This document shows positions 42,637 to 64,000 of a stretch of 64,000 nucleotides of DNA, in pieces. The notes beneath the pieces are model-generated. The model was given only the letters and a program-made list of their open reading frames with translations. It was not told the DNA's origin and did no database searches. Origin of the DNA: Candidatus Multivorans sp. Its GTDB lineage: Bacteria; Acidobacteriota; Thermoanaerobaculia; Multivoradales; Multivoraceae. The DNA lies in NCBI GenBank assembly GCA_965224025.1, contig OZ245033.1:3712001-3776000 (forward strand), written 5' to 3'. The number at the start of each line of letters is the position of its first letter. Position 1 is the stretch's first letter. A program made the position numbers and the translations under genes.

Positions 42637-42688
42637 TCCCCGCCTTGCTCTTGGTACGCGGCTCCGGCCCGGCCGGCGCCGCCACAGA

Positions 42689-47122: not shown

Positions 47123-47127
47123 CCGCA

Positions 47128-47186
47128 CCCGGAAACCCGGGTGGCTCGATCCGCCCTGGGAACGCGGGCGTCTCGCCCGCATCCGG
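47128..47186 (-). repeat. REP-like repeat family A, short copy lacking the central hairpin
   Basis: Reverse complement reads CGGATGCGGGCGAGACGCCCGCGTTCCCAGG..CCACCCGGG; between convergent genes. Confidence 0.65.
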
Positions 47187-47194
47187 GCCCGCCG

Positions 47195-47851
47195 CTACTC
47201 CGCCAGGATCTGCCGCGTGCGGTGGAAGACCTCGTCGAGGCCAACCTCGTCCGAACCGTAGTACCCGCGGACGCCGCCGGCCCGGTCCACCAGAACCAGC
47301 CGCGCCGCGTGCGCCACGTCGACCAGTCCGCCGGCAAGGTCGATGCGCTCGCCCATGGGCAGGGCGAACCCGTCCACCACGACCGAGCGCACGTCCTGCC
47401 GATCGCCGGTCACCAGGCGCCAACGCTCCAGGTCGAGGCCGCGGCGCCCGGCGTAGTCCCGCAGACGTTCCGGCGTATCGTGTTCCGGATCGACCGAGAA
47501 GCTGACCAGCCGAACGCCCTCGACGCCCTCCTCCCGGTAGCGGCGTTCCAACCGGCTGACTTCCGCGGTCAGCCGGGGGCAGACCGTCGCGCAGCGCGTG
47601 AACACGAAGGAGGCAACGTAGACCTCGCCCGCAAGATCGCCGCTGCCGAAGGCATCGCCGTTCTGGTCCACGAGCCGCCACTCGGGCAACTGCCGCAGAA
47701 CCGGCGGCGGATCCGGCTCGATACGGAGCAGGGGCCGCAGCGCCGGGATGAGCACCACACCCGCGAGCGCCGCCAGAAACCAGGGATTCAGGAACCGGCG
47801 ACGGGGAGGAATCCCCGCTTCGTCCGACCTCTTCGAACCCTCTCCCGACAC
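47195..47851 (-). CDS. Sco/SenC family copper chaperone
   Basis: N-terminal TM; FVFTRCATVCP (CxxxC), SVDPEHDTPERL and conserved His (VAHAA). Confidence 0.92.
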   Translation of the reverse strand: MSGEGSKRSDEAGIPPRRRFLNPWFLAALAGVVLIPALRPLLRIEPDPPPVLRQLPEWRLVDQNGDAFGSGDLAGEVYVASFVFTRCATVCPRLTAEVSRLERRYREEGVEGVRLVSFSVDPEHDTPERLRDYAGRRGLDLERWRLVTGDRQDVRSVVVDGFALPMGERIDLAGGLVDVAHAARLVLVDRAGGVRGYYGSDEVGLDEVFHRTRQILAE

Positions 47852-47878
47852 GCCCCGACACTATCTCGGCTCGATCCT

Positions 47879-47907
47879 TTGACCGCCTCGGTAGCACGCT
47901 ATACACT
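47879..47907 (+). promoter_or_regulatory. Putative sigma70 promoter for the actA operon
   Basis: TTGACC-N17-TACACT ending 54 nt upstream of the actA TTG. Confidence 0.55.
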
Positions 47908-47961
47908 CCGCGCGATCTCGGATCGCGCAGGGTTTCCTACCCTGCTGCGGGGTTCGGAGTT

Positions 47962-48609
47962 TTGGCTCAGATCTTCCCCAAGTGGACTCTCAAGGCGCCG
48001 CTGTACTTGGCGGCCGCTCTGCCGATCGCGGGGGCCGCGGCGGTGGGCGCCGTCTGGTACTACGGTTCGCCCGAGTACACCGACGTCGGTTACCGGCCGG
48101 CTCAACCCGTGCCCTACAGCCACAAGCTCCACGTCGGCGAGCTCGGCCTCGACTGCCGGTACTGCCACGCCTCGGTCGAGGAGTCGGCGGTGTCCAGCAT
48201 TCCGCCCACCCAGGTGTGCATGAACTGCCACCACGTCGCGGCGCGCGAGAGCGAACTCCTGGCGCCGATCCGCAAGAGCGCGGCGCAGGGCCGGCCGATG
48301 CGCTGGGTGCGCGTTCACAACCTGCCCGACTACGCGTTCTTCAATCACAGCGTCCATGTCGGCGCCGGCGTCGGCTGCAGATCCTGCCACGGTCCCGTCC
48401 ATGAGATGGAGGTCGTGACCCAGGTGGAGCCCCTGAGCATGAGCTGGTGCCTCGACTGCCACCGCGACCCTGGCCCGAATCTGCGGCCGCTCGACGCCGT
48501 CACCGACATGGAGTGGACGCCGACCGGCGATCACGAAGCCTTCGCAGAGCAGGCGATTGCGGAACGGGCGCTGGCGCCGCCCGAGGACTGTACGGGGTGC
48601 CATCGATGA
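47962..48609 (+). CDS. actA: Alternative complex III pentaheme cytochrome c subunit
   Basis: N-terminal TM; PAQPVPYSHKLH; CRYCH, CMNCH, CRSCH, CLDCH, CTGCH; WVRVHNLPDYAFFNHS. Confidence 0.92.
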   Translation: MAQIFPKWTLKAPLYLAAALPIAGAAAVGAVWYYGSPEYTDVGYRPAQPVPYSHKLHVGELGLDCRYCHASVEESAVSSIPPTQVCMNCHHVAARESELLAPIRKSAAQGRPMRWVRVHNLPDYAFFNHSVHVGAGVGCRSCHGPVHEMEVVTQVEPLSMSWCLDCHRDPGPNLRPLDAVTDMEWTPTGDHEAFAEQAIAERALAPPEDCTGCHR

Positions 48610-51600
48610 CCGCGGGCAACGGCAACCGGCCTGAGAAGACGTACTGGCGCAGCCTGGAACAGGTGCAGGGCGATTCCCGGGCCACCGATTTCCTGCACCG
48701 GGAGTTCCCGGAAGGCGCTTCCGAGGCGCCGCCCGAACTGCTCCAGGAGGGCTTGAGCCGGCGCAGCGTCCTCGCGATGCTCGGCTCCACCGCCTCCCTG
48801 GCCGGCCTGGCCGGATGCGACGTCATCCGCCGTCCGGTGGAACACATCGTTCCCTACGTCGACGCGCCGGAAGGCATGGTTCCCGGAATCCCGATGGCGT
48901 ACGCCACCACGATGCGGTTCGGCAACCGGGCCCTCGGCGTGGTCGTGGAGAGCCATGAAGGCAGGCCGACCAAGGTCGAGGGGAACGAACTCCACCCGTC
49001 TTCCGGCGGCGCCTCTGGAGTCTGGGCGCAGTCCTCCATCCTCGACCTGTACGACCCGGACCGCTCCAAGACGGTGCGATTCGGTGACCAGGCCTCGTCC
49101 TGGGACGACTTCGTCGCCGCCTGGACCGAAGGCGACCTCGCTCCCGCCGCCGACGGCGCCGGTCTGGCGATCCTCGCCGAGCCGTCCTCGTCGCCGACTC
49201 TGCTCCGGCTCAAGACGGCTCTGCTCGAACGCCATCCCCAGGCGCGCTGGGTGAGCTGGCAACCAGTGAGCGAAGAGAACGCCGACCGCGGTCTCGAATC
49301 GGTGGCCGGCAATCACTACCACGCCCTCTACCACCTGGAGCGGACGCAGGTTCTGCTCTCCCTCGACTCCGACCTCCTGGGCACGGAGGGCGACAGCGTC
49401 CGCAACCTGCGCGGCTACGCCAACGCCCGGCGCGTGGGCGACAACGGTTCCTCCGCGATGCTCCGGCACTACGCCGTCGACGGCGTCCACTCGGTCACGT
49501 CCGCCAACGCGGACCACCGGCTGCGGGTACAGAGTGGCCGTGTCGCCGCGTTCGTGGCCCAACTGGGACAGGCCCTCGCCGCACACGGCCTGGAAGTGCC
49601 GCTGGACGGCGGTGCGCCGGCCGCGGACATCGACGACGCCTGGGTGCAAGCGGTGGCGAAGGACCTGGCCGGGCACCGCGGCGCCGGCCTGATCGTCGCG
49701 GGCGACCGCCAGCCGGCGGAGGTCCACGCGGCGGTCTACGCCCTGAACTCGGCGCTCGGCAACGTCGGCGCTACGGTGACCTGCCACCAGACGCCGGACA
49801 GCGGCAGTTCGAGCGACGCCGACCTGGCCGCCCTGGTGGCGGCGATGAACGAAGGCGCAGTCGACCGCCTTGTTATCCTGGAGGCGAATCCGGTCTACAG
49901 CGCTCCCGCCGACCTCGACTTCGCCGCCGCGCTCGAGAACATGAACAGCGCCGGCGCGGTCATCCACGTCAGCACCCACCGTGACGAGACGAGCCGCCAC
50001 GCGCGTTGGCACGTGCCGCTCGCCCACTACCTCGAGAGCTGGGGCGACGCCCGCGCCACCGACGGCACGGCCAGCGTCGTCCAGCCCCTGATCGAGCCCC
50101 TCTACGGCGCCAGGAGCGCGATCGAGGTGCTGGCGCTGGCGGCCCTGGGCGAGGCGCGGGATGGTCGCGACCTGGTCCGCGAGACCTGGTCCGGGCTGCT
50201 CGGCCTGCCGCTTGACGAGAGTGCCGAGGGCGAAGAGGCGGCGATGGTACCGGCGGATGCCGAGTCCGGCGGCGAGGCTGCGGAAGGAGACGGAGGCGAG
50301 GAGGCGGACGCCCCGCCCGTCGATCCCATGTCGCTGCCGTTTCCGGTCGCGCTCTCCGAGTTCGAAGTCGCCTGGCGCCGGGTGCTCCATGACGGCGTGC
50401 AGGAAGGCAGCGCCGCGCCCGCGGCCGAGCTGGCAACCGTTACTCCCGAAGACTGCGCCACCGCGGTGCGGGCCGCCGGCGACGCCGCCAGGGCGGTCGC
50501 CCTTGGCGAGGAACTGGAGGTCGTCTTCCGCTGCTCCGCGGCTCTGTACGACGGACGCTTCGCGAACAACGGCTGGCTCCAGGAACTCCCCGATCCGATC
50601 ACCAAGCTGACCTGGGACAACGCGGCCCTGATCAGCCCGGCCACCGCAGCGGCCCTCGGCCTGGAGAACGAGGACCTGGTCACCGTCGCGTGCGGCGAAC
50701 GGGAACTCGAGTTGCCGGTGTGGCAGGTGCCCGGCCAGGCCGACCACAGCGTGACGATCGATCTCGGCTACGGTCGTGACTTTGGTGGCCGGATCGCCAG
50801 CAGCGCCAACGACGAGGATCACAACCCGGGCAGGAACGCCTATCTGCTGCGCACCTCGGACGCCCTGCACGTCGGCCGCTGCGCGCTCAAGGCCAGCGGC
50901 GGTTCGTACCCCCTGGCGCAGACCCAGGACCATCACTCGATGGAAGGTCGGCCGCTGGTCAAGGAAGCGGACCTCGACTATTTCGAGGAGCACCCCGACT
51001 TCGCCACCGCCCACAGCGAGAAGCCGCACGAGAACTCGATGTGGGACGAGTGGACCTACCGTGACTCGCCCCAGTGGGGCATGACGATCGATCTGAACGC
51101 CTGTGTGGGCTGCAACGCCTGCGTCATCGCCTGCCAGAGCGAGAACAACATTCCGATCGTCGGCAAGGAACAGGTGATGGAAGGCCGGGAGATGCACTGG
51201 CTGCGCATCGACCGCTACTTCTCCTCCGAGGGCGAACGCGACGGCCTCGTCGACGGTCTGCCTCACGACCCACAGACCAACTTCCAGCCGGTGCCCTGCA
51301 TGCAGTGCGAGAACGCGCCCTGCGAGCAGGTCTGCCCCGTCTCCGCCACCGTCCACGATGACGAAGGGCTGAACGCGATGGTCTACAACCGCTGCATCGG
51401 TACCCGCTACTGCTCGAACAACTGCCCGTACAAGGTCCGGCGATTCAACTACTTCAACTTCACCAAGGACACCCCCGAGGTGATGCACCTGGGCAAGAAC
51501 CCGGACGTCACGGTCCGTTCTCGCGGGGTGATGGAGAAGTGCACCTACTGCGTGCAGCGGATCAGCCGCGCCAAGGTCGACGCCAAGCGGGACGGCCGGC

Positions 51601-51872
51601 CTCTGGCCGACGGCGATGTCGTCACGGCCTGCCAGCAGGCCTGCCCTGCCGACGCGATCCGCTTCGGCGACATCACGGACGGGGCGAGCCAGGTCAGCGA
51701 GGCGAAAGCGGGTCCTCGCAACTACAACCTGCTCGACGATCTGCACACCAAGCCGCGGACCACCTACCTGGCGAAGATCCGGCATCCGAACCGGGACATC
51801 GTTCCCGCCCCGCCGCCGGTCGAGGACCACGGTGCAGCCGACGACGCCGGCCACGGCGGGGACGCGCACTGA
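48606..51872 (+). CDS. actB: Alternative complex III molybdopterin-like/Fe-S subunit (fused B1-B2)
   Basis: YWRSL..EFP..SRRS Tat variant plus LAGC lipobox; EGRPTKVEGN, WLQELPDPITKLTWDN; four Fe-S motifs CVGCNACVIAC, CMQCENAPC, CIGTRYCSNNC, CTYC..CQQAC. Confidence 0.93.
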   Translation: MTAGNGNRPEKTYWRSLEQVQGDSRATDFLHREFPEGASEAPPELLQEGLSRRSVLAMLGSTASLAGLAGCDVIRRPVEHIVPYVDAPEGMVPGIPMAYATTMRFGNRALGVVVESHEGRPTKVEGNELHPSSGGASGVWAQSSILDLYDPDRSKTVRFGDQASSWDDFVAAWTEGDLAPAADGAGLAILAEPSSSPTLLRLKTALLERHPQARWVSWQPVSEENADRGLESVAGNHYHALYHLERTQVLLSLDSDLLGTEGDSVRNLRGYANARRVGDNGSSAMLRHYAVDGVHSVTSANADHRLRVQSGRVAAFVAQLGQALAAHGLEVPLDGGAPAADIDDAWVQAVAKDLAGHRGAGLIVAGDRQPAEVHAAVYALNSALGNVGATVTCHQTPDSGSSSDADLAALVAAMNEGAVDRLVILEANPVYSAPADLDFAAALENMNSAGAVIHVSTHRDETSRHARWHVPLAHYLESWGDARATDGTASVVQPLIEPLYGARSAIEVLALAALGEARDGRDLVRETWSGLLGLPLDESAEGEEAAMVPADAESGGEAAEGDGGEEADAPPVDPMSLPFPVALSEFEVAWRRVLHDGVQEGSAAPAAELATVTPEDCATAVRAAGDAARAVALGEELEVVFRCSAALYDGRFANNGWLQELPDPITKLTWDNAALISPATAAALGLENEDLVTVACGERELELPVWQVPGQADHSVTIDLGYGRDFGGRIASSANDEDHNPGRNAYLLRTSDALHVGRCALKASGGSYPLAQTQDHHSMEGRPLVKEADLDYFEEHPDFATAHSEKPHENSMWDEWTYRDSPQWGMTIDLNACVGCNACVIACQSENNIPIVGKEQVMEGREMHWLRIDRYFSSEGERDGLVDGLPHDPQTNFQPVPCMQCENAPCEQVCPVSATVHDDEGLNAMVYNRCIGTRYCSNNCPYKVRRFNYFNFTKDTPEVMHLGKNPDVTVRSRGVMEKCTYCVQRISRAKVDAKRDGRPLADGDVVTACQQACPADAIRFGDITDGASQVSEAKAGPRNYNLLDDLHTKPRTTYLAKIRHPNRDIVPAPPPVEDHGAADDAGHGGDAH

Positions 51873-52486
51873 TGCGCGAGGCGATGAGATTCCGGAAGGG
51901 GCACCGGCGGCTCGCGGGCGCCGCCTTCGCCGCGGCTCTCCTCCTGCTCGGTTGCCGGGGCATGCCCTCGCCGTATCCACCGATCCACCTGAATCCGAAC
52001 ATGGACTACCAGGAGCGCTACGATCCCCAGGAGGCGAGCGGCTTCTTCTACGACGGGATGGCGATGCGCCAGCCGGTCGCCGGCACCGTGGCGCGCGGTC
52101 AGCTCGACATCGACCACCGCCTGCTGTTCGGCCGCGACGACGAGGGTTACTTTCTGGAAGGTTCGCCGATCCCGGCCACCGACGAAGTGCTGGCCCGCGG
52201 ACAGAACCGCTACGCGATCTACTGCCAGCCGTGCCATGACGAGCGCGGCACCGGACAGGGCATCCTGTTCGAACGGGCCAGCACACCCACAGCGTCGCTT
52301 CACGACGAACGGATCGCCGGCTACAACGATGGCCGCCTCTACGACGTCATCACGAACGGTTCCGGGCTGATGGCGGGCTACCGCTACCCGCTCGAGACCG
52401 AGGATCGCTGGGCGGTCGTGGCCTACGTCCGCGAGTTGCAGGAAGAACGCCGCACGATGCAGGCGGAGCGGGAAGCCCGCCAGTAA
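51872..52486 (+). CDS. actE: Alternative complex III monoheme cytochrome c lipoprotein
   Basis: Lipobox LLGC; NMDYQ, MRQPVAGTVARG, RYAIYCQPCH, ITNGSGLM and DRWAVVAYVR motifs. Confidence 0.88.
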   Translation: MREAMRFRKGHRRLAGAAFAAALLLLGCRGMPSPYPPIHLNPNMDYQERYDPQEASGFFYDGMAMRQPVAGTVARGQLDIDHRLLFGRDDEGYFLEGSPIPATDEVLARGQNRYAIYCQPCHDERGTGQGILFERASTPTASLHDERIAGYNDGRLYDVITNGSGLMAGYRYPLETEDRWAVVAYVRELQEERRTMQAEREARQ

Positions 52487-52508
52487 CGCCCTCAGGGGTG
52501 GAGAGCCA

Positions 52509-54440
52509 GTGACCAGAAACAAGATCCTCTTCGGTATCGGCGTTCTCGCCTTCGTGGCGGTGATCGCCACGGTGCGCCTGGGCGGTTTCCTGGTGGACAA
52601 CGAGTACCGCCAGCCGGAGCGTCAGGTGGCGGCCGAGGAAGCGGTGGGCGAGGCCGAACCGACCCCGCGTCAGCAGGGCATCGCCGACGAGCAGGCCGCC
52701 GACGAAGCGGAGGCGAAGGCCAGGCCCTACGTGGAGGCGGAGTACCGCACGGTTCCGTTCGTCGGCAGCCGGGTCACGGTGTGGGTGCTGGCGCAGCTTC
52801 ACCTGCTGTTCGCCGCCTTCGTGCTGGCGGTGCCGCTGTTCGCCTTCATCATCGAGTTCGTCGGCTACGTCACCAAGGAAGAGCGCTACGACAAGCTGGC
52901 CTACGAGTTCACGAAGCTCTTGAGCGTCTCGTTCTCGATGACCGCCACCTTCGGCGCGTTCCTGACCTTCGGGCTGATCATCCTGTACCCGAAGTTCACG
53001 AACTACCTGATGCACATCTTCTCGCCGACCTTCCTGCCCTACGTGCTGCTGTTCTTCCTGGAAGCGCTCTTCCTCTACAGCTACTACTACGGCTGGGGCA
53101 AGTTCGGGCCGAAGATGCACCTGTTCCTCGGTTTCATGCTGAACGTGGTGGGCACCGCGATCATGTTCATCGCCAATGCCTGGTTGACCTTCATGATGTC
53201 GCCCGGCAAGAGGGAGGACGTCGACGGAGACGGCATCCCGGACTTCGTCTCCGCCGTCTCGGAGAGCGGCGCTCTGCTCAGCCTCCGGGACGCTTTCTTC
53301 AACTTCACCTGGATGCCGATCAACATCCACCGGATCATCGCCAACGTCGCCTTCGGCGGCTCGATCGCCGCCGCGTACGCCGCCTTCCGCTATCTGCAGG
53401 CGAAGACCGACGAGGAAAAGGCCCACTTCGACTGGATGGGCTACATCGGCAACTTCGTCGCCATCATCGCCTTCCTGCCGCTGCCGTTCGCCGGCTACTA
53501 CCTGGCAAGCGAGATCTACGCCTTCAGCCAGACCCTGGGCATCCAGATGATGGGCGGCACCTTCTCCTGGCTCTTCGTCCTCCAGGCGGCGCTGATCGGC
53601 AACCTGTTCCTGGGCGCGAACTACTACCTGTGGCTGGGAATGGGCCGCATCGAAGGCACCGCCCACTTCCAGAAATTCATCAAGTATCTGCTGATCGCGA
53701 TCGCGCTCTGCTTCGCCGTCTGGGCCACGCCGCGCTATGCGATCTCGTCCGTCTCCGAGATCGCCGCCATGGGCGGCGGCAGCCACCCGCAGCTCCGCTA
53801 TCTGGGGCAGATGTCGGCCAAGAACACGGCGGTCAACATCCTGATCCTCTCGACCTACATGAGCTTCCTGCTCTACCGGCGAACCGGCAAGCAGTCGACC
53901 CACCTTCATCGGCAGCTCCTGACCCGCGCCCAGGTCGTGGTCTTCGCCGCGACCGCGTCGCTGGTCGTCTTCTTCGGCGTGTACGGCTACTACGTCGACG
54001 CCGCGACGCGAGTCCGACTCGCCATACCCCAGGTCTACTCCGTGCTCGCCGCGATGGTCGTGATCACCATCATCGACCTGCCTCTGTACCGAAACGCCAG
54101 GCGGCCCGGCGAGACGCAATGGGGCAAGATGCCCGCGATCTCGCAGTACGCACTCATCTTCATCGCACTGAGCTTCACCTGGCTGATGGGCCTGATGGGA
54201 TACGTCCGCTCCGGCCTGCGACAGGAATGGCACGTGTACGGTGTAGTCCTCGATACCTCCCCGGACGCCCATACACCCACCCTCGGGTTCGCCACCCAGG
54301 TCGTTTCGGTCACCGTTCTCATCTTCTTCGGCCTGCTCGGCGTCGTCTTCTGGCTCAGCAGCCTCGCCGGCAAGAAGCCCTGGCAGCCGAAGACGGCCAC
54401 GGAAGCCGACGGCCGGCTCGAGGAGGGGCAATCGGCATGA
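52509..54440 (+). CDS. Cytochrome bd-like (CydA-related) membrane oxidase subunit
   Basis: Many TMs; QLHLLFAAF (His19-like), FFLEALFLY, NAW..MMSPG, INIHRII (His186-like), GLRQEWHVYG (GRQPW-like); no cydB follows. Confidence 0.82.
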   Translation: MTRNKILFGIGVLAFVAVIATVRLGGFLVDNEYRQPERQVAAEEAVGEAEPTPRQQGIADEQAADEAEAKARPYVEAEYRTVPFVGSRVTVWVLAQLHLLFAAFVLAVPLFAFIIEFVGYVTKEERYDKLAYEFTKLLSVSFSMTATFGAFLTFGLIILYPKFTNYLMHIFSPTFLPYVLLFFLEALFLYSYYYGWGKFGPKMHLFLGFMLNVVGTAIMFIANAWLTFMMSPGKREDVDGDGIPDFVSAVSESGALLSLRDAFFNFTWMPINIHRIIANVAFGGSIAAAYAAFRYLQAKTDEEKAHFDWMGYIGNFVAIIAFLPLPFAGYYLASEIYAFSQTLGIQMMGGTFSWLFVLQAALIGNLFLGANYYLWLGMGRIEGTAHFQKFIKYLLIAIALCFAVWATPRYAISSVSEIAAMGGGSHPQLRYLGQMSAKNTAVNILILSTYMSFLLYRRTGKQSTHLHRQLLTRAQVVVFAATASLVVFFGVYGYYVDAATRVRLAIPQVYSVLAAMVVITIIDLPLYRNARRPGETQWGKMPAISQYALIFIALSFTWLMGLMGYVRSGLRQEWHVYGVVLDTSPDAHTPTLGFATQVVSVTVLIFFGLLGVVFWLSSLAGKKPWQPKTATEADGRLEEGQSA

Positions 54441-54922
54441 AGCTGAACGTCCCGATGCCGCTCCGGCTGGTCCTCCTGGTCCTGGGCACCACGGCCTTCT
54501 ACATGTACCTGGGCCAGATCGTGCCCCAGAAGGAGGTACACCCTCCACCGCCGGTGCTGATCAACGCCGAGATGACGACCGAGGATTTGATCGCGGTCGG
54601 CAGCGAGCTCGCCAACGGCAAGGGGCAATGCCTCGCAGCCTGCCACTCGATCGGGTCCAGCGGACCAAGCCGCTATCCGGATCTGGGTGGCATCGGACAG
54701 CGCGCGGCGACGCGGCTCGAGGGGCTGTCCGATGTCGAGTATCTGGCGCAGTCTCTCTACGAACCGGGAAGCTTCGTCGTGCCTGGCTACGAGGACGGTA
54801 TGCAGCCCATGAACGAGCCGCCCATCAGTCTCTCCGATGACGAGATCAAGGCCGTGATCGCCTGGCTGCAGAGCCTGGGCGGAACGCCGTCCGTGACCTT
54901 GGACACCGACCTCGGTTACTAA
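54437..54922 (+). CDS. Membrane-anchored monoheme cytochrome c with CX3CH motif
   Basis: N-terminal TM; GKGQCLAACH, PDLGG, YLAQSLYEP..VVPGY..MQP; ATGA overlap with upstream gene. Confidence 0.82.
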   Translation: MKLNVPMPLRLVLLVLGTTAFYMYLGQIVPQKEVHPPPPVLINAEMTTEDLIAVGSELANGKGQCLAACHSIGSSGPSRYPDLGGIGQRAATRLEGLSDVEYLAQSLYEPGSFVVPGYEDGMQPMNEPPISLSDDEIKAVIAWLQSLGGTPSVTLDTDLGY

Positions 54923-55047
54923 GGCTCAACTTTCAGAAACTATTGAAGCAATGAGGAACAACCGTCAACTCGCCTCTGTTCTGAGGAGTGACTGCTCCCT
55001 CGCGGGTGGGCATCCGGCCCCCGAACCTTCACGGAACTGACTCGATC

Positions 55048-55866: not shown

Positions 55867-57614
55867 TGGCTGCACGCATCGACCCGGCCGCCGTTGCGGC
55901 TGCTGCCGCACTCCTGGCGGCGCCTCTGGCCGCCCAGGTCGACCTCGGCACCGAAGAGCAGCGAGCCGCCGGCAAGGTCGTCTACGACAGGTACTGCGGC
56001 CAGTGCCACGGCGACGAGGGCGACGGCAACGGCTACGCCACCCCGCGGGTCAAGCCCAAGCCGCGCGACTTCACGTCCGGCAAGTACAAGTTCCGCACCA
56101 CGCCGAACGGGATGCTCCCCACGGACGACGACCTGCGCCGCGCGATCGAAATCGGCCTCCCCTACACCTCGATGCCGGGCTGGCCCAACCTGACGAGCAC
56201 CGAAATCGACAACGTCATCTACTACATCAAGTCCTTCTCGCCCGACTTCGAGAACCCGGACCGCTACGGTGAACCGCTCGACATTCCCCGGCCGCTCGAG
56301 TCCACCGAGGAGTCGATCGCCCGCGGGCGCGTGGTCTACGAAGAGCAGGGCTGCGCCGCCTGTCACGGCGAGGTCGGCCGCGGCGACGGCACCTCGGCGC
56401 CGACCCTGGTCAACGACAAGAACGAGCCCATCAAGGCCGCGGACCTGACCCAGCGCTGGACCTACCGAGGCGGCGCGACCAAGGAGGACATCTACCGGAC
56501 CTTCTCCACCGGGCTCAACGGCACACCGATGCCGTCGTACGCGGACTCGCTCGAAGTAGAGGACCGCCAACACCTGGTGAACTACGTCTACTCCCTGGGC
56601 GACGGCGACGACCCCGGCTACGGCACGCTGATCACCGCCGCATGGACCGAGGAGGCGATCGACCTGCAGGACGCGGAAGCGCTCGACGCCCTGTTCCAGG
56701 CCGCGCCGATGACCCGCTTCCCACTGATCGGGCAGATCACCGAGCCGGGGCGGAACTTCTATCCCTCGGTCACGTCGATCGAAGCCCAGGCCGTCTACAA
56801 CCGCGGCGAGATCGCCTTCCGGGTGCGCTGGAACGATCTTCGTGCCGACAACACGGGCAGGAGCAACCCCGCCCTCGAAGTGCCGACGTGGGACGAGGAC
56901 AACGGCTTCGGTGGCGACAGCGGTGGCGACGACGGCGGCTTCTTCGGTGTCGAGGAGGACTCCGGAGATGACGGCGGCTTCTTCGGCGTCGAGACCGCGG
57001 ACGACAGTGCTGACGACTTCTTCGGCGGCGCCGACGGTTTCTTCGGCGGCGGCGACGACGCCGGCAGCGACGGCGCCGAATTCTCGGATGCCGTAGCGCT
57101 GCAGTTCCCGGCCTCGCTCGCGCCCGAAGACCAGCCCCAACTCAAGCCTTACTTCCTGTTCGGCGACAGCCAGAACCCGGTCGACCTCTGGTTCGTCAAC
57201 CTGACCTACGGAGTCGCGGACACCTTCCGCGGCCGCGGCAGCGGCGCGATCGAGCCGACCGAGGCCGACATCGTCGAAGCCGTGACCTCCTACGACCAGG
57301 GCGAGTGGACGGTGACCTACAAGCGGCGGCGCGGGTCGCGTGCCGGCGTCAGCTTCGCCGAGCAGCAGTACACGCCGATCGCCTTCAGCGTGTGGGACGG
57401 CTTCAACCGGGAACGCGGCAACAAGCGCGCCCTGTCGTCCTGGTTCTACGTCTACACCGAACCCAGCGTGAAGCAGGCAGCGACCATCCCGGTGCTGCGC
57501 GCCGCCTTCATCGTGCTCTTGATCGAGTTGCTCGTCGTGTTCCTGGTGCGCCGCCGAGCGAGCCAGCAGCAGGAGGGCGCCGCCCTCACCGGCACCGAAG
57601 CCACCGCGGTCTGA
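55866..57614 (+). CDS. Diheme cytochrome c fused to ethylbenzene dehydrogenase gamma / NxrC-like (EB_dh) domain, C-terminal TM
   Basis: CGQCH and CAACH; FSDAVALQFP, PVDLW, GEWTVTYKR and PIAFSVWDG..ERGNK typical of type II DMSO reductase heme b subunits. Confidence 0.82.
   Translation: MAARIDPAAVAAAAALLAAPLAAQVDLGTEEQRAAGKVVYDRYCGQCHGDEGDGNGYATPRVKPKPRDFTSGKYKFRTTPNGMLPTDDDLRRAIEIGLPYTSMPGWPNLTSTEIDNVIYYIKSFSPDFENPDRYGEPLDIPRPLESTEESIARGRVVYEEQGCAACHGEVGRGDGTSAPTLVNDKNEPIKAADLTQRWTYRGGATKEDIYRTFSTGLNGTPMPSYADSLEVEDRQHLVNYVYSLGDGDDPGYGTLITAAWTEEAIDLQDAEALDALFQAAPMTRFPLIGQITEPGRNFYPSVTSIEAQAVYNRGEIAFRVRWNDLRADNTGRSNPALEVPTWDEDNGFGGDSGGDDGGFFGVEEDSGDDGGFFGVETADDSADDFFGGADGFFGGGDDAGSDGAEFSDAVALQFPASLAPEDQPQLKPYFLFGDSQNPVDLWFVNLTYGVADTFRGRGSGAIEPTEADIVEAVTSYDQGEWTVTYKRRRGSRAGVSFAEQQYTPIAFSVWDGFNRERGNKRALSSWFYVYTEPSVKQAATIPVLRAAFIVLLIELLVVFLVRRRASQQQEGAALTGTEATAV
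56892..57080 (+). repeat. Coding low-complexity repeat (D/G-rich, GFFG units)
   Basis: DDGGFFGVE twice, plus DDFFGG and DGFFGG; repeated TTCTTCGG units. Confidence 0.8.
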
Positions 57615-57686
57615 TTACCGCTCCGTTCACATACCGCTACGTCCCATCTCTCGGAACCGACACTCCGTCAACAGAAGAGACACCCC

Positions 57687-59852
57687 ATGTACAAGACGAT
57701 CTACGTCCCGCTCGACAACTCGGACTACTCCAACCAGGCGATCGCCTCCGCGGTCGAACTGGGCCGGAAGTTCGACTCCAGGATGGTCGGCTGCCACGTC
57801 TACGCGGCCAGCATGCACGACTACCGCTTCAAGCAGATGGAGTACACGCTGCCCGAGGAGTACCTCGAGGAGACGGAACTCGACCGCCAGCGGAAGATCC
57901 ACGACTCCCTGATCACGATGGGGCTGGAGCTCATCTCGGAGAGCTACCTCGAGCCGATGAAGGCGGTCTGCGACGAAGCCGACCTCGAGTTCGAGCCGAA
58001 GATGATGGACGGCAAGCACCACGTCGAGATCGTGCGCGACATCCGCGAGTCGGGTTACGACCTGACCGTGATCGGCGTGATGGGAATCGGCCGCGTCCGC
58101 GACACGCAGATCGGCTCGGTCTGCGAGCGGGTCGCCCGGACCGTCGACAAGGATGTGCTCGTGATCAAGCGACTGCCGGCAAGGACCAACGGAAAGCCGA
58201 CGAACGGCAACGGCAACCACGCGGAAGCCGACGCCGACGGCCGCGACACGATGCTGGTCGGCGTCGACGGTTCGCCCCAGTCGTTCGGCGCCCTGATGAC
58301 CGCCATCGACCTGGCGAAGCGGTTCGGCAAGAAGGTCGAGGCGATCTCGGTCTACGACCCGTACCTCCACTACTCCGTGTTCAAGGGCGTGGTCAACGTG
58401 CTGACCGAGCGCGCCGCGAAGATCTTCCGCTTCGAGGAGCAGAACCAGCTTCACGAAGAGATCATCGACACCGGTCTGGCGCAGATCTACCAGTCGCACC
58501 TGGATGTCGCCGAGACGATGGCAACCGAGATCGGCGTCGACCTGACGAAGACCCTGCTCGACGGCAAGGCGTTCCAGAAGGTCCTCGATCACGCCCGGAA
58601 GATCGACCCCTGGATGCTCGTGATCGGCCGCGTCGGCGTGCATAGCGACGAGAGCGAGACCGGCCTCGGCAGCAACGCCGAGAACCTGCTCCGTTCCTGC
58701 CCCTGCGACCTCCTGCTGACCACCCGTCTCGAGTACCCGGAACTCGACGTCAAGGCCGAAGAGAGCATCCGCTGGACGCCCGAGGCCGAGGAGCGCTTCG
58801 AGCGCGTCCCCGAGCAGGTGCGCGGCATCGCCCGCACCGCCCTCTACCGGCTGGCGGTCGAGCAGGGCCACAGCGTGATCTCGAGCGACGTGCTCGACGA
58901 GGCGATGGACCGCTACATGCCCAAGTACACCGCTCGCGAGACGGAGGCGCTCGCCGAGCAGGTCGCCCTGCAGCTCGCGCGCAGCCGTCCCACTTTCATC
59001 TGCCGCAAGTGCGGCGTGACCTCGGCCGAGCCGGATCCGGTCCGCTGCGGCGTCTGCGGCAGTGAGTCGTTCGAGCAGATCACGGAGGAGATGCTGGACC
59101 GGATCGCCGAGATGGAGGGCGGTCTCGAGGTCGAGACGACCTATGACGGCCGCAAGCTCAAGTGGACCGCGGACGCCCGTCTGGCGCTCAAGACGATCGA
59201 GGACGCCTACCGGCGCCGCCGCGCCAAGGCGCGGATCGAGAAGAAGGCGCGGATGAGCAAACTGCCCACCGTCACCTTCGAGTTCGCGCGCGCCTTGATC
59301 GAAGACGAGACCGGCGAGCCGGTGACGATCGAGGCCCGCGAGCAGGCGGCCGACGCGAACGGCAACGACGCGCCCGAGGCGGCGTCCGAGGAGCGCAAGC
59401 TGATCGCCCGCGACGACGACCGCGTGCCGCTGCTCTCGACCTACGAGTGGTCGGGCGAGGCCGTCGAGCGCATTCTCCGGGTTCCCGCCGGCTTCATGAG
59501 GGACCGGACCCAGGAGCGCGTCGAGCTGGTGGCCCGTGAGAAGCACGTCTCGGAGATCGGGATCAAGACGGTCGAAGAGGGCATCGCGCTCGGCCGCGAG
59601 CTGATGGAGCAGATGATCGCGGCCTACGAGATCGGCAAGGGCGAAGGAACTCAGGCGAGCGCAGTCGCCGAGGCAGAGTCGAAGGCCGCGACCGCTGCGG
59701 GCAGATGCCCCTTCTCCGCTCTCGCCGAAGCCGGCGCCGGTGACGCCCAGGTCGAGGCAGCGAAGGACGCGAAGGCCGGCGCCTACCTGAACGAGGTCGG
59801 CCTGATGTCGGCACTCGACGAGAAGCGCAAGGCCGGCGAACCGGAAGCCTGA
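57687..59852 (+). CDS. Tandem universal stress protein fused to PCP_red-like helical domains and a Zn ribbon
   Basis: IYVPLDNS..IGSVCERV and LVGVDGS..LGSNAENL (two USP domains); three WTxEA/DA-type helical repeats; CRKC..CGVC; C-terminal CPF. Confidence 0.8.
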   Translation: MYKTIYVPLDNSDYSNQAIASAVELGRKFDSRMVGCHVYAASMHDYRFKQMEYTLPEEYLEETELDRQRKIHDSLITMGLELISESYLEPMKAVCDEADLEFEPKMMDGKHHVEIVRDIRESGYDLTVIGVMGIGRVRDTQIGSVCERVARTVDKDVLVIKRLPARTNGKPTNGNGNHAEADADGRDTMLVGVDGSPQSFGALMTAIDLAKRFGKKVEAISVYDPYLHYSVFKGVVNVLTERAAKIFRFEEQNQLHEEIIDTGLAQIYQSHLDVAETMATEIGVDLTKTLLDGKAFQKVLDHARKIDPWMLVIGRVGVHSDESETGLGSNAENLLRSCPCDLLLTTRLEYPELDVKAEESIRWTPEAEERFERVPEQVRGIARTALYRLAVEQGHSVISSDVLDEAMDRYMPKYTARETEALAEQVALQLARSRPTFICRKCGVTSAEPDPVRCGVCGSESFEQITEEMLDRIAEMEGGLEVETTYDGRKLKWTADARLALKTIEDAYRRRRAKARIEKKARMSKLPTVTFEFARALIEDETGEPVTIEAREQAADANGNDAPEAASEERKLIARDDDRVPLLSTYEWSGEAVERILRVPAGFMRDRTQERVELVAREKHVSEIGIKTVEEGIALGRELMEQMIAAYEIGKGEGTQASAVAEAESKAATAAGRCPFSALAEAGAGDAQVEAAKDAKAGAYLNEVGLMSALDEKRKAGEPEA

Positions 59853-59911
59853 GTTCCGCTTCTCCGGCGGCAGACCGCCGGCACGGCCCGCTCGAACCAC
59901 TGGGGGCGAAC

Positions 59912-60480
59912 ATGGGCAGACCCAAGGACATCGGCGTCGTCGATCTGATGCTGGAAATCCCAACCGGCGACCCCAACATCCGCGCCGCCTCCGCCGCGCC
60001 GTGCCTTGCGCATCCGCAGGCGCCGATCGACGACAAGCGCTTCTACCCCATCTACGCCAAGTGCGTCGAGCTCGACATACCCATCAACATGCTGGTCGGC
60101 GTGCCCGGTCCGCGCGTGCCCTACAAGTGCCAGTACCCCGGCCTGCTCGACGAAGTCGCTTGGTTCTTCCCGGACTCCGCGTCGTCATGCGCCACGGCGG
60201 CGATCCATGGACCGACCTGTGCGTCAAGCTGTTGCTCAAGTGGCCCAACCTGTACTACTCGACGACGGCCTGGGCGCCCAAGCACTACCCGCGCGACGTG
60301 CTCGAGTTCGCGAACAAGCGAGGCCCGAACAAGCTCCTCTACGCCGGCTACTTCCCCGGCCTGTCGTACGAGCGCATCTTCACGGAAATGGACGACCTGC
60401 CGCTCCAAGAGCACGTCTGGCCGAAGTTCCTGCGCGAGAACGCGGCCGCCGTGTTCAAGCTGGACGACCTGCTGGGCTAG
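59912..60480 (+). pseudogene. Amidohydrolase_2 family gene with internal deletion and frameshift
   Basis: FYPIYAKCVELDIP..GVPGPR continues in another frame near 60175 as VVMRHGGDPW..KWPNLYYSTTAWAPKHYP..NAAAVF; N-terminal region too short. Confidence 0.78.
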
Positions 60481-60598
60481 TACGTTTCGGCCATGCTGAT
60501 TCTCGCGCTGCCGCGCCTGCCGGAGCAGGCGCCGACCGGCGCGCCCCCCGCTCCGGCCGCGCTCGGGGCGCTTGCCGGTCCACGGTCCGAGTAGGCCG

Positions 60599-61528
60599 GT
60601 GTCCGCGTACCGCTTCTGCCGCTCTGACGACGTTCCCCTGATCGTCGAGGCCTTCCACCGCTGCAACGTGGGACCCGGCGCCGTCCCGTGGCGGCTTACG
60701 GTCGACCACATGAAGCGGCTCTCCAGGGAGATCAATCTCTGGACCAGCAGTTGCATGGTGGCCTTTGCGGGCCGCGACCCGATCGGCGTGCTGATCGCAG
60801 CGAAGCGGGCGCCCATCGCCAACCTCGTGCTCCACGTTGCGGTCCACCCCGACCACCGCCGGCAGGGCCATGCCCGCCACATGATGACCTCGCTCAGCCA
60901 GAAGATGGCGATCCTCGAACCGACCCGCATGCTGGCCGAAGTTCCGGCGGAAGCCGTCGCCGCCCACCGTTTCCTCAACGCCTGCGGTTTCGCTGAACGG
61001 CAAACCCTGATCGATTACTTCCACACAGGCGAATGCCCTGCCGCCGGCCCCTTTCTCGCCCTGGTCGGGACTGTTGCCCCGTCGGAGATCACCGCCGGCG
61101 CCGAGTTCGCCGATGTCTCGGATCTGGACCGTTGCTGGCAGCGCTCCGCTCGGACGATCCGCAACCTGCGGGAGCTGGCACTGGGCGTCGGCATCGCCAC
61201 CGATCGCGGCTTTGAGGCCTATCTTCTCTACCGGAGCGCCCGGGACGCCGACGACCCCCTGCCGTTCATCGCCAGGCCGCCCATTCCCACGTCGGGCGCC
61301 GGCCTGCCCGCCGACTCGGCACCCTGCGAGATCCTCGCGATCGGCGGCGAGCGGCCGGTGCCGGCACTTCTGGGACCCCTGCTGGCCTTCGCCGCCAACG
61401 ATTCCAAACGACCGCTCTACTTGCCGCGGGTGCATCCCGCCGAACCACTGGCGGATCGGCTCGAGGACTGCGGCTTCCAGGCGACGCAGAAGACCCTCCG
61501 ATACGAAAGCGACGCGGCCCGGTCGTGA
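60599..61528 (+). CDS. GNAT family N-acetyltransferase
   Basis: VAVHPDHRRQGHARHMM acetyl-CoA motif A; FLNACGF. Confidence 0.75.
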   Translation: MSAYRFCRSDDVPLIVEAFHRCNVGPGAVPWRLTVDHMKRLSREINLWTSSCMVAFAGRDPIGVLIAAKRAPIANLVLHVAVHPDHRRQGHARHMMTSLSQKMAILEPTRMLAEVPAEAVAAHRFLNACGFAERQTLIDYFHTGECPAAGPFLALVGTVAPSEITAGAEFADVSDLDRCWQRSARTIRNLRELALGVGIATDRGFEAYLLYRSARDADDPLPFIARPPIPTSGAGLPADSAPCEILAIGGERPVPALLGPLLAFAANDSKRPLYLPRVHPAEPLADRLEDCGFQATQKTLRYESDAARS

Positions 61529-61545
61529 CTGCTACGCTGCTCATC

Positions 61546-62391
61546 ATGTCCGCTCATTCGGCCGAAGAAACGCCAATCGGAGCGCAGTCCGAGGTCCAGC
61601 CCAAACCGGAGAAACTCGAACTGCTCGAAACGGCCTACGAGCTCACTGACTTCCGGTCCTTCGCCGACCTTGGCGCCTGCTGGGGCGTCGATGGCGCGTA
61701 CACGTTCCACGCCGCCGAACTCTGCGGCGACGAGCTGGAGAGAGCGGTGATCGTCGACGGCAATCTGACTCCCCTGACCCGGGAGCGAGCGAAGGAACAT
61801 CCAAGGGTGGAACTGGTCCAGGCCCGGCTCGGCTCGCAGCGGGCGCTCGACGCGGTCGGCGAGGTCGATGCCCTCATCATGTACGACATCCTGTTGCACC
61901 AGGTCAAGCCGGACTGGGACAGGTTCCTGCTGAACTGGCTGCCGCACGTCAACGTCCTGATCGTCTTCAATCAGAACTGGTTGAAGACCGCACGGACCAT
62001 ACGGTTCGTCGATCGCGGCCTCGACTGGTACTACAGGAATGTCTACGTTTGGGAAGACGATTGGAACACGCGCGCCCGGCTGGAGGCGTGGTTTGACAAG
62101 CATCACCAGCGCGACGAAGACGGACGGCTCGTGCGGGACAACCATTGGTACTGGCAGTTTGGCATCCGTCCCCAGGAGTTGATCGGCCTGCTGGCGAAGA
62201 ACGGTTTCGAACTCGTCTACATGAAGAGGCATCGTCACGCCTTCGGTCGCAGCCGCCCCTGGATCGTGAACGATGGGCTCATCTTTCAGCGCGCCGCCTA
62301 TCCGGAACTCGGCTTCCGTGGTCGGCTGCGCGCCGCGGCCCGCTCGCTGGCTGGACGAACCGGCCTTCTCGAACGCATCCGCAGGCCATGA
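61546..62391 (+). CDS. Hypothetical protein, possible class I SAM methyltransferase fold
   Basis: SFADLGACWG motif-I-like, DALIMYDILLHQ; ATGA overlap with Mrp gene. Confidence 0.55.
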   Translation: MSAHSAEETPIGAQSEVQPKPEKLELLETAYELTDFRSFADLGACWGVDGAYTFHAAELCGDELERAVIVDGNLTPLTRERAKEHPRVELVQARLGSQRALDAVGEVDALIMYDILLHQVKPDWDRFLLNWLPHVNVLIVFNQNWLKTARTIRFVDRGLDWYYRNVYVWEDDWNTRARLEAWFDKHHQRDEDGRLVRDNHWYWQFGIRPQELIGLLAKNGFELVYMKRHRHAFGRSRPWIVNDGLIFQRAAYPELGFRGRLRAAARSLAGRTGLLERIRRP

Positions 62392-63260
62392 AGACCTACT
62401 TCGACGTCGCCGGAGACGGCGGTTCCGACGTTCTCGGGCAGGTTCTCCAGCAGCGTGAGCGCATCGCCGAGGCGATGGCCGGCATCGATCACGTCGTCGC
62501 CATCGGCTCCGGCAAGGGAGGCGTCGGCAAGAGCACGCTGACCATGCAGCTCGCCCTGGCACTCGAGCGGGCCGGCCGCCGCTGCGCGATTCTCGACGCC
62601 GACTTGAACGGTCCCTGCCAGGCCCGTCTTGCCGGGCTGGAACAGGTTCCTCTGCTGCCGGGTGACCGCGGCATGGCACTGCCCCGCACGTCTCGTGGTC
62701 TGGGCGTCGTGTCGTTGGGTTCCCTGGTGCCCGAGTCGGAGCACGTCGCGTTCGAGAGCGTAGCGACGGGCGACTCCCACGTCTGGCGCGCAACCCGCGA
62801 GTTCAACCTGTTCCAGCAGTTGCTCGGTCTGGTGGACTGGGGTCGTCTCGACTTTCTGCTGGTCGACCTGCCGCCGGGCGCCGAACGCACCCTGCAGTAC
62901 GCCGAAGTCCTGGGGCCGGACGCGCGCTTCGTGCTCGTCACGATTCCAGCCGCGCTGGCCCGCGGCGTCGTCGCGCGCTCGGCGGCGGCGCTCGGCACGA
63001 CGCCGAACGAGGTGCTCGGGTACATCGAGAACATGAGCGGCTACTACTGCGGTACGTGCGACGGGGTCCGTCCCCTGTTCCACGGCGCGGCCGGCGAAGC
63101 GCCGAAGCTTGGACTCCCCCGTCTGGCTAGGGTACCGTTCGACCCGCGTCTGGCAACGGCCTCCGATGCGGGCGAAGCGGACTTGCCCCCGGGACCGGTC
63201 ATCCGCGCGATCGACGAGGCCGCCGCACGGCTTCTGCGTTGCGTCGCCCAGACAAGCTGA
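62388..63260 (+). CDS. Mrp/NBP35/ApbC P-loop ATPase (Fe-S carrier)
   Basis: GSGKGGVGKST, LDADLNGP, VDWGRLDFLLVDLPPG and IENMSGYYCGTC motifs. Confidence 0.9.
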   Translation: MKTYFDVAGDGGSDVLGQVLQQRERIAEAMAGIDHVVAIGSGKGGVGKSTLTMQLALALERAGRRCAILDADLNGPCQARLAGLEQVPLLPGDRGMALPRTSRGLGVVSLGSLVPESEHVAFESVATGDSHVWRATREFNLFQQLLGLVDWGRLDFLLVDLPPGAERTLQYAEVLGPDARFVLVTIPAALARGVVARSAAALGTTPNEVLGYIENMSGYYCGTCDGVRPLFHGAAGEAPKLGLPRLARVPFDPRLATASDAGEADLPPGPVIRAIDEAAARLLRCVAQTS

Positions 63261-63282
63261 TTCCGAACGACAGAGATCAAGG

Positions 63283-63810
63283 ATGAAGTTCCTCTGCGTA
63301 CCCTGCGACGAGCAGATGAAGCTGAAGCACGCCCTGGGACCTGATGGCGGTTCCGTCGCCCTGGTCTATGCCTGCCCCACCTGTTCCGCCGAGATGGCGA
63401 TGATGACGAATCCGCACGAGACCCAGGTGGTTGGATCGCTCGGCGTACGGATCGGCCCCGAGACGGGCGACGAAGCCGCGGCGACGTCCTCGAAGTGTCC
63501 CTTCACGGGCATGCTGGCGGAGATGGGCATGTCGACCTCCGCGACCAACTCACAGCCTGAAAGTCGCGAGTCCGGAGATCCCGCGCATCTTGCCGGCCGG
63601 AATCGAGACGGCGGGCACGGCGCCGCGGTCAACGGAGAACCGGGAGGCATTCCCTGGACCGCCGAAGCCCGCGAGCGGCTGGCGAACATCCCCGACATCG
63701 TGCGCACTTCGGCGGTCGCGGGCATCGAGAAGTTCGCTCTCGACCATGGCTACGATGAGGTCGACGCGGCGGTCCTGGAGCGCGCCCGCTCCTTCTTCGG
63801 CATCGCCTGA
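63283..63810 (+). CDS. Zn-ribbon plus PCP_red-like domain protein
   Basis: MKFLCVPC..CPTC; central KCPF; C-terminal IPWTAEARERLANIPDIVR..IEKFA helical domain. Confidence 0.78.
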   Translation: MKFLCVPCDEQMKLKHALGPDGGSVALVYACPTCSAEMAMMTNPHETQVVGSLGVRIGPETGDEAAATSSKCPFTGMLAEMGMSTSATNSQPESRESGDPAHLAGRNRDGGHGAAVNGEPGGIPWTAEARERLANIPDIVRTSAVAGIEKFALDHGYDEVDAAVLERARSFFGIA

Positions 63811-63846
63811 ACCTTCCGGCAGAACATCGCGCACAACGCCCTCGCC

Positions 63847-64000
63847 ATGACCCTGTCACCCCTGGAACGGCCGACGAGCGCCATGCCGGCTGCGTTCGCC
63901 CGCCCGTACGTCATCTCCTGGAACCTGACCTACCGCTGCAACCTGGCCTGCGAGCACTGCTACCTCGACGCCGGCGGCAAGCCGCTGGTCGAGACCGCCA
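63847..64000 (+). CDS. Radical SAM protein, AhbC/AhbD/NirJ-like (partial, runs off window)
   Basis: Frame from ATG 63847 reads ..PYVISWNLTYRCNLACEHCYLDAG (CxxxCxxC). Confidence 0.8.
   Translation, partial: MTLSPLERPTSAMPAAFARPYVISWNLTYRCNLACEHCYLDAGGKPLVETA

Follow-up and report, generated by a model that had tools for sequence, protein, structure and literature searches.

A putative bd-like oxidase module behind actABE in 'Candidatus Multivorans' and a probable alternative complex III encoded in two halves

Organization of the gene cluster

The window studied here is a stretch of 64,000 nucleotides from 'Candidatus Multivorans' sp. (G000:C1:3712001-3776000; GenBank contig OZ245033.1), whose genome G000 comprises 5.14 Mb on three contigs with 67.6% G+C. 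Towards its end lies a respiratory gene cluster in which actA, actB and actE, the genes for three subunits of alternative complex III (ACIII), run into a gene for a CydA-like membrane protein and three genes for cytochromes c, here called c1, c2 and c3. An earlier note on this DNA, made from the sequence alone, had listed these genes together with downstream USP-PCP_red, Mrp, Zn-ribbon/PCP_red and radical SAM genes, and this gene content was found as claimed, with all genes on the plus strand. The cluster does not begin at 47195, as the note had it; this is the end of a minus-strand gene for a Sco1/SenC copper chaperone (47195-47851; PF02630, 87 bits), which is divergent from actA. The acidobacterial host proposed in the note agrees with the 93-95% identity of the CydA-like gene to counterparts from Thermoanaerobaculia and 'Candidatus Multivorans'.

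The actA gene (47962-48609) encodes a pentaheme cytochrome c with five CxxCH motifs and an N-terminal transmembrane (TM) helix, which gives Cytochrome_C7 and QrcA-like matches. The product of actB (48606-51872) is a fused molybdopterin-like and Fe-S subunit (887 bits to 6F0K_B) with a TIGR04519 TAT-variant signal and a C-terminal QrcC-like Fe-S domain, and actE (51872-52486) encodes a monoheme lipoprotein cytochrome c with the lipobox LLLLGC and one CxxCH. The CydA-like protein of 643 aa (52509-54440) matches PF01654 with 88 bits at residues 87-337 only. Behind it follow c1 (54437-54922), a membrane-anchored monoheme cytochrome c (PF00034) with the motif CLAACH, c2 (55048-55866), a polytopic membrane protein with a C-terminal monoheme cytochrome c domain (PF13442, one CxxCH), and c3 (55866-57614), in which a diheme cytochrome c (two PF00034 matches, two CxxCH) is fused to an NxrC/EbdC-like heme b domain (PF09459, EB_dh) and a C-terminal TM anchor.

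The tight coupling described for actA-actB-actE was confirmed: actA and actB share an ATGA overlap, actB and actE a TGATG overlap. A 22-nt spacer containing GGAG separates actE from the CydA-like gene; the latter overlaps c1 by ATGA, and c1 is translationally coupled to it. The remaining junctions are a gap of 125 nt between c1 and c2, a TGATG overlap of c2 and c3, and 72 nt between c3 and the USP gene. A scan of the window found no terminator-like site between the plus-strand genes. It placed a promoter-like site at 47879-47907 before actA; with two sites of this kind where 1.1 would be expected, this is uninformative.

The total of ten heme-attachment motifs given in the note for the act and c genes holds only if the CLAACH of c1 is counted, which is a Cx3CH and not a CxxCH motif. 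The c1 motif is CxxCH in 71 of 77 orthologous segments and Cx3CH in the other six; this one-residue insertion is apparently limited to close relatives of the window. In c2 the single CxxCH is kept in all 74 orthologous segments.

The act genes of the window and a distant actCDF-cox operon

ActA is a membrane-anchored pentaheme cytochrome c as in canonical ACIII, and its five CxxCH motifs are kept in 43 of 47 orthologous segments. ActB has 15 cysteines invariant across 34 sequences, as many as one [3Fe-4S] and three [4Fe-4S] clusters require; this is the cluster content given for ActB of ACIII (Table 1 of PMC8076601). It is the sole full-length ActB in the genome. ActE, likewise present once, keeps its CxxCH in 55 of 55 orthologous segments. 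In one relative (G038, L020) the matches to the cluster actB hold two in-frame stops, one TGA and one TAG, for which decay or sequencing error are possible.

As the note had stated, ActC, ActD and a heme-copper oxidase are missing here: the 64-kb window gave no NrfD, ActD or COX1 match. A search of the whole genome found NrfD, ActD, ActF and COX1 elsewhere. NrfD (PF03916) is matched at three loci, none of them in the window. Two of these, one Qrc-like and one Psr/Ttr-like, are self-sufficient. The third is an actC-actD-actF operon (C1:3103146-3106466) on the same contig, 656 kb away. Its actC (C1:3103146-3104636) scores 682 bits against ActC of Rhodothermus marinus (6F0K_C), the following actD 212 bits against PF11821, and actF (455 aa) 318 bits against 6F0K_F. 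His139 and Ser164 (R. marinus numbering), named as quinol-binding residues of ActC in PMC8076601, are aligned and identical in this stray ActC. After actF come an open reading frame (ORF) for a cupredoxin-like protein of 359 aa with a C..H..M signature (C1:3106324-3107403, L005:10324-11403) and the genes COX1, COX3, COX4, a 180-aa membrane ORF and COX2 with the CuA ligands, within a locus taken to C1:3113000. No actA, actB or actE was found at this locus. All six ACIII subunits are thus present in the genome, in two operons, together with one COX1, one CydA-family gene (PF01654) and one cytochrome b. The note itself had named what would speak against a non-canonical complex without ActC, ActD and ActF, namely actCDF genes at another locus by which a normal ACIII is completed. 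This operon is just that, and the claim of such a complex is not supported.

The cupredoxin-like protein may be an electron carrier from ACIII to the oxidase. It carries a CarboxypepD_reg domain at the C-terminus as well as a signal or anchor, and a paralog is found at L005:6205-7026 on the minus strand; its match to a blue copper domain in the PDB reaches an E of 0.021 only. The ORF is kept in 9/9 of the stray operons described below, and similar genes stand beside canonical ACIII loci. The Qrc-like set (C1:1831300-1836900, L006), present in every searched genome of the window's genus, consists of a multiheme cytochrome 37% identical to ActA, a molybdopterin subunit that includes an Fe4S4 domain, an Fe-S subunit sharing 56% identity with the C-terminus of ActB, NrfD, and a weak ActD-like ORF (60 bits).

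Co-occurrence, phylogeny and adjacency of the two operons

Studying the relatives of the window reveals that the two operons strictly co-occur. We searched 41 genomes (G000 and 40 others) from 16 genera of one order, 25 in the window's genus and 16 outside. The cluster was scored as present when the CydA-like gene was found at E <= 1e-250, and an ActD as stray when a strong match was separated from every ActB by 12 kb or more, or by lying on a different contig. The cluster occurs in 32 of the 41 genomes, namely all 25 of the genus and seven of the 16 others, and each of these 32 possesses exactly one stray ActD. None of the nine genomes without the cluster has one, since their ActD genes are all ActB-adjacent (G039, whose ActD is cut by contig ends, is ambiguous). 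These genomes are kin and not independent, and the counts reflect one or few old events. Within the window's genus no complete ACIII operon was found, and where both genes are on one contig ActD and ActB are 36 kb to 1.1 Mb apart. In the other genera tallied the copy number of ActB equals that of ActD in every genome.

From this order we fetched 13 cluster loci, nine stray-ActD loci (of the 31 relatives) and six canonical loci. All 13 cluster loci show the order actA-actB-actE-CydA-like-c1-c2-c3-USP at protein identities down to 45-69%, which bears out the conserved synteny on which the note had made its reading depend. The nine stray loci all read actC-actD-actF-cupredoxin-COX1-COX3-COX4-ORF-COX2 without actA, actB or actE, with ActC 67-75% identical between families. 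In the six canonical loci actABCDEF are followed by a different cox operon, COX2-COX1-COX3-COX4, whose COX1 is 33-36% identical. Maximum likelihood trees separate cluster-type from canonical ActB (12 and six sequences, the partial G034 copy being left out) and stray from canonical ActC (10 and six sequences), each with 100/100 support. Supported subgroups common to both trees are {G031, G038}, {G026, G036, G033...} and the window's genus.

A wider set came from scanning one genome per species for a pattern; at least 587 stretches encode relatives, of which the best 80 were kept. They are 57-95% identical and come from several classes of Acidobacteriota, from Rhodothermales, Myxococcota/'delta proteobacterium', Calditrichia, Fibrobacteria, a Gemmatimonadaceae metagenome-assembled genome (MAG) and others. 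Sixty-one loci extend 5 kb or more upstream of the CydA-like gene, and in 45 of these it is preceded by ActA, ActB and ActE. The note had considered an assembly chimera at 52.5 kb; this can be excluded, because the actE/CydA-like junction recurs in these 45 independent loci, and G+C is even (0.62-0.71) throughout the region. The junction is stable across at least eight families of the order and in many other Acidobacteriota.

In several loci of other Acidobacteriota and of one Myxococcota-type MAG the two half-operons are direct neighbours. They are convergent in L059, L064, L065, L068, L093, L099, L106 and L108, where the Mrp-PCP_red-(radical SAM) end of the cluster faces the COX2 end of the actCDF-cox operon. 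In L102, Sco-actC-(D)-actF-cupredoxin-COX1 lie on one strand and actA-actB-actE-CydA-like diverge on the other, and a Sco gene stands divergently upstream of actA in 19 of the 80 loci. The module, the split ACIII and the aa3-type oxidase form one island in many genomes; in the window's genus it has come apart, and its former junction is marked by the Sco gene next to actA.

The arrangement is best read as an ordinary ACIII split between two loci, with one terminal oxidase next to each half; in the main it is not a new kind of complex. The ActABE of the window and the distant ActCDF would then probably assemble into one ordinary quinol:cytochrome c oxidoreductase that feeds both oxidases.

The CydA-like protein and its cytochromes

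Whereas ActABE precede the CydA-like gene only in some lineages, c1, c2 and c3 follow it in all 67 loci with at least 3.6 kb of downstream sequence. The 16 of 61 loci without ActABE belong to several phyla and include all Rhodothermales loci with enough flank. For this reason the CydA-like protein and c1-c3 appear, on gene order, to be an autonomous module. It is positioned where terminal oxidases sit, as in L124 (actD-actE-actF-COX2-COX1-COX3-CydA-like) and L116 (cupredoxin-COX1-COX3-COX4-COX2-CydA-like).

Matches of the CydA-like protein to solved CydA chains are limited to residues 83-243, within which His98 aligns with His19 and Glu185 with Glu107 of E. coli CydA. In 43 CydA-like sequences from several phyla Glu185, His204, His274, His426 and His575 are invariant, and His98 is kept in at least 90%. 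In one relative (G034, L025) the His19 equivalent is Lys, where decay or sequencing error are possible. An AlphaFold (AF2) model from the 43-row alignment (pLDDT 69.7, pTM 0.69) has an N-terminal helix and 14 TM helices, and all ten Foldseek matches at E <= 0.001 are CydA chains, none NrfD-like. No CydB (PF02322) match was found in the genome. These features fit a putative oxygen reductase of the OR-N 'bd-like' family, whose members lack the quinol site and in which 14 helices are described for subfamilies N1 and N2 (Murali et al., bioRxiv 10.1101/2021.01.16.426971). In the published alignments (PMC3578206, Murali et al. preprint) the quinol-binding residues of the Q-loop are absent from the bd-like family.

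The note had offered two roles for the CydA-like protein, quinol interface or terminal reductase, in a hybrid without NrfD in which ActA, ActB and ActE dock directly on it. As a putative role the terminal reductase stands, while the CydA-like protein as a substitute for NrfD was rejected, because it has a predicted CydA fold and occurs without ActABE in 16 of 61 loci. The hybrid as a whole, with the CydA-like protein as quinol interface or built-in terminal reductase, could draw on the mere 22 nt between actE and the CydA-like gene in a tightly coupled string, and on the conservation of this junction in 13/13 loci of the order and 45/61 of the wider set. It would leave a conserved stray actCDF with no other ActB in the genome to serve it, and it does not agree with the co-occurrence of cluster and stray actCDF (32/32 versus 0/9), with the module's existence without ActABE, with the fold, or with the lack of Q-loop residues in the family. 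We consider it very unlikely.

The third cytochrome had been called NxrC-like, and the note had pointed to similar neighbourhoods in nitrite oxidisers, a likeness borne out by PMC3578206. The PF09459 match of c3 (53.5 bits) passes its cut-off. Against TIGR03477 it scores 74.9 bits (cut-off 169.85) and covers model positions 76-203 only. Judged by these profile scores c3 holds an NxrC/EbdC-related domain and is not a member of that gamma-subunit family. No type II DMSO-reductase alpha subunit (NxrA/NarG-type) was found above cut-off in the genome, the best match having 124.9 bits against a cut-off of 984.75.

A different function for the CydA-like protein and c1-c3 has to be considered here, either electron transfer between cytochrome c and quinone, in reverse or sideways, or the reduction of NO, nitrite or peroxide, with ACIII supplying or accepting the electrons. 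The Nitrospina genome paper (PMC3578206) raised a complex-III-like, quinone-interacting function, and the heme b domain of c3 is of a kind otherwise belonging to periplasmic molybdoenzymes. The position of E. coli Glu99, part of the proton channel, is moreover occupied by Tyr178 in alignment to three CydA structures; according to the Murali et al. preprint the Glu99 equivalent is kept in some OR-N subfamilies only. On the other side, the equivalents of His19 and Glu107 in the O2-reducing four-helix core are kept, the module repeatedly stands directly after ACIII or cox genes (L124, L116, L112), and the genome search gave no NxrA/NarG-type partner above cut-off. A role other than O2 reduction therefore seems unlikely to us.

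Proposed electron flow through a split complex

If the ACIII is assembled from its two halves, quinol would be oxidised at ActC and the electrons would pass through the Fe-S clusters of ActB and the hemes of ActA to ActE. From ActE they would take two routes, one to CuA in the aa3-type oxidase whose genes accompany actCDF, the other through the membrane-anchored c1-c3 to the OR-N-type bd-like protein, where O2 would be reduced. Each half of the complex would be transcribed with one of the two predicted terminal oxidases, and the USP/PCP_red protein, Mrp, the Zn-ribbon/PCP_red protein and the AhbD/NirJ-like radical SAM/PCP_red protein would mature the cofactors of the module.

The linkage of ActABE with the module could also be merely regulatory, ACIII feeding the aa3-type oxidase only and the bd-like module being fed by a bc-type complex or soluble carriers, with operon shuffling behind the present order. 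For this speak the occurrence of the module without ActABE in several phyla, the cytochrome b gene in the genome, and the rearrangement of the island between lineages, where the half-operons are convergent, divergent or 656 kb apart. However, shuffling does not agree with an actABE/CydA-like junction that is stable over so many families, nor with ACIII or cox genes adjoining the module in unrelated arrangements (L124, L116). We regard this explanation as hardly likely at all.

Several points weigh against an ordinary ACIII feeding both oxidases. The assembly of the six subunits, which we hold to be likely, is inferred from genomes, by co-occurrence and congruent trees, and both come from kin, so that one inherited island would give the same pattern. 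The coupling of actABE with the CydA-like gene in 13/13 loci at 45-69% identity is what a direct complex would predict as well. A bc-type complex, for which the cytochrome b gene stands, could feed either oxidase. For the bd-like branch there is the Tyr at the Glu99 position, and O2 reduction by OR-N proteins is putative in the literature consulted, in which no member has been purified or assayed.

Expression data do not help either. Two RNA-labelled sequencing runs were found, each with a 0.05 share of words, and X1 is the only one with long contigs. A relative about 88% identical contributes to X1 a 4547-nt contig that covers 51421-55868, from the 3' end of actB to c2; a further contig covers 56438-59854. 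Depth over the cluster is 52.9, 52 and 44.8, and over a control stretch of unrelated genes upstream (30000-47900) 48.8 and 49.7. Because the depth is the same over these unrelated genes, X1 is uninformative on expression and gives no sign of transcription or co-transcription of the cluster; the flat depth, 45-53 overall, suggests DNA in a library labelled metatranscriptomic.

Downstream genes and probable cofactor maturation

The USP-USP-PCP_red-Zn ribbon-PCP_red gene (57687-59852, plus strand; PF00582 with 126 bits, PF08369 with 72 bits in two stretches), whose product is cytoplasmic, follows c3 in most related loci. The note had placed Mrp, PCP_red and radical SAM genes behind it. They are there, but a frameshifted Amidohydro_2 remnant (59912-60641), a GNAT gene and a 288-aa ORF without family match intervene, in this order, before Mrp. 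The Amidohydro_2-like gene shifts frame after about 88 codons, and a plausible C-terminal part goes on in another frame; its halves match relatives in different frames, and the copy of the window is either frameshifted or mis-assembled.

Mrp (62388-63260, plus strand) is an Mrp/NBP35-type Fe-S cluster carrier ATPase (PF10609, 168 bits) that the MrpORP and ApbC models match below their cut-offs. The Zn-ribbon/PCP_red protein (63283-63810, plus strand; PF08369, 45.8 bits) carries a Cys-Pro-Phe motif that 35 of 39 orthologous segments share. The radical SAM gene (63847-64000 on the plus strand, and on to C1:3777214) extends 1214 bases beyond the window end and encodes Radical_SAM (PF04055), SPASM (PF13186) and C-terminal PCP_red (PF08369) domains. 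Three cluster proteins thus contain PCP_red, the lid domain of the B subunit of protochlorophyllide reductase. Cys-Pro motifs are able to bind heme.

Over its whole radical SAM and SPASM part the radical SAM protein has its best family matches in AhbD (TIGR04545, 291 bits) and NirJ2 (TIGR04055, 277 bits). It differs from both by the extra C-terminal PCP_red domain and by scores far below the cut-offs of 500, and would accordingly be classed by its domains and scores as a relative and not as an equivalog. Its gene (E <= 1e-30) is found in 31 of the 32 cluster genomes and in none of the nine others; the lone cluster genome without it, G017, is in 160 contigs. Of the 61 loci in the wider set whose downstream flank reaches at least 9.5 kb, 31 include it there; in many others the flank stops at or before the PCP_red gene. 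In Rhodothermales-type loci a 37-40% identical radical SAM gene follows c3 and precedes the USP gene. The Mrp-PCP_red-radical SAM unit of G031 is found beside the actCDF-cox operon instead.

The downstream genes would mature the module's cofactors, most likely a tetrapyrrole, with a heme as the probable substrate of the radical SAM enzyme. As a general heme synthase it was rejected, since HemF and ferrochelatase are present and nine relatives lack the radical SAM gene at E <= 1e-30. HemF and ferrochelatase are neighbours in G000, where a HemN_C-type gene was also found and no ChdC; ordinary heme b is therefore independent of this enzyme.

We tentatively go one step further, with a proposal that we consider possible and not probable. 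The OR-N oxidase might carry a heme beyond ordinary synthesis, which would be tailored or finished O2-free by the radical SAM enzyme; the two other PCP_red proteins, one with the Cys-Pro-Phe motif, would pass the cofactor to the membrane protein. In the same proposal the ActABE arm could serve both ActCDF and the bd-like oxidase as an exchangeable module. If true, this would be an undescribed route of heme maturation for one class of respiratory enzymes. Our literature search found no publication that links bd-like oxidases with a radical SAM enzyme, and in its available text the Thermoanaerobaculia paper PMC8528874 makes no mention of ACIII or bd oxidases. In any case the co-inherited AhbD-like radical SAM set offers a testable handle on the cofactor of OR-N enzymes.

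Comparison with known systems

All six subunits of canonical ACIII, as known from Rhodothermus marinus (6F0K), Flavobacterium johnsoniae (6BTM) and Roseiflexus (6LOD), are matched in G000, and as in canonical ACIII cox genes follow act genes. The difference is that the G000 genes are in two operons 656 kb apart, of which that of the peripheral half is tied to the bd-like module.

The closest parallel for the separation is the Cr operon of Chloroflexus aurantiacus (Caur_2133-2144), which according to PMC3150298 contains actB, E, A, G, SCO1 and cox genes and no actC, D or F. Proteomics suggested that ActCDF is shared in trans in Chloroflexus (PMC9316378). Common to both, on these accounts, are actA, actB and actE without actC, actD and actF, the vicinity of SCO1/SenC and of a terminal oxidase, and an ActCDF proposed to come from elsewhere. 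In Chloroflexus, however, the oxidase of the operon is a heme-copper enzyme and ActCDF comes from a second complete ACIII operon, while the window has a bd-like oxidase and in its genome ActCDF has its own operon with a heme-copper oxidase.

In Nitrospina, Nitrospira and Kuenenia a 14-helix 'bd-like oxidase' is described beside mono- and diheme cytochromes c, an alternative NxrC and a zinc-finger protein (PMC3578206). Like these OR-N/bd-like clusters the window encodes a homolog of CydA, with 14 predicted TM helices of which only the first four are common with canonical CydA, and no CydB. It differs from the clusters of nitrite oxidisers, as described there, by its probable heterotroph host without an NxrA-type enzyme above cut-off, by the fusion of the NxrC-like domain to a diheme cytochrome, and by ActABE upstream. 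ACIII-type genes directly upstream of a putative bd-like oxidase are also reported for Nitrospirales, with actAB1B2CDE before an OR-N5 bd-like oxidase (PMC12342949), and for 'Ca. Manganitrophus', with ACIII-like parts in the bd-like clusters TO_3 and TO_4 (PMC9040806). Unlike in the window, these reports have actC and actD in the same operon, a split ActB, no actF and a 10-helix N5a/b pair. The acidobacterial arrangement may already be shown in the operon figure or the supplementary tables of the Murali et al. preprint.

OR-N bd-like proteins have been proposed as the main terminal oxidases of nitrite and manganese oxidisers. The module, always accompanied by three cytochromes c of its own, occurs widely in probable heterotrophs among Acidobacteriota, Rhodothermales, Myxococcota and others, which may be easier to grow than nitrifiers. 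If our reading is right, ACIII can be encoded as two halves, each with a different oxidase, and an annotation of single loci miscalls such a split ACIII as incomplete or "rewired".

Other genes in and near the window

Past the window end a gene with an FGE-sulfatase domain (C1:3777147-3777896) comes after the radical SAM gene. A counterpart in G034 (L036:16937-17575), 48% identical, is found after COX2 of the actCDF-cox operon. Further upstream in the window a PSCyt1/DUF1549/DUF1553 gene (891-4905, plus strand) adjoins a DUF1501 gene, and a PQQ-dehydrogenase propeller ends an open frame of 1277 codons (12141-15974, minus strand). A separate diheme cytochrome c, encoded at 19021-20061 on the plus strand, shares 31% identity with the N-terminal portion of c3.

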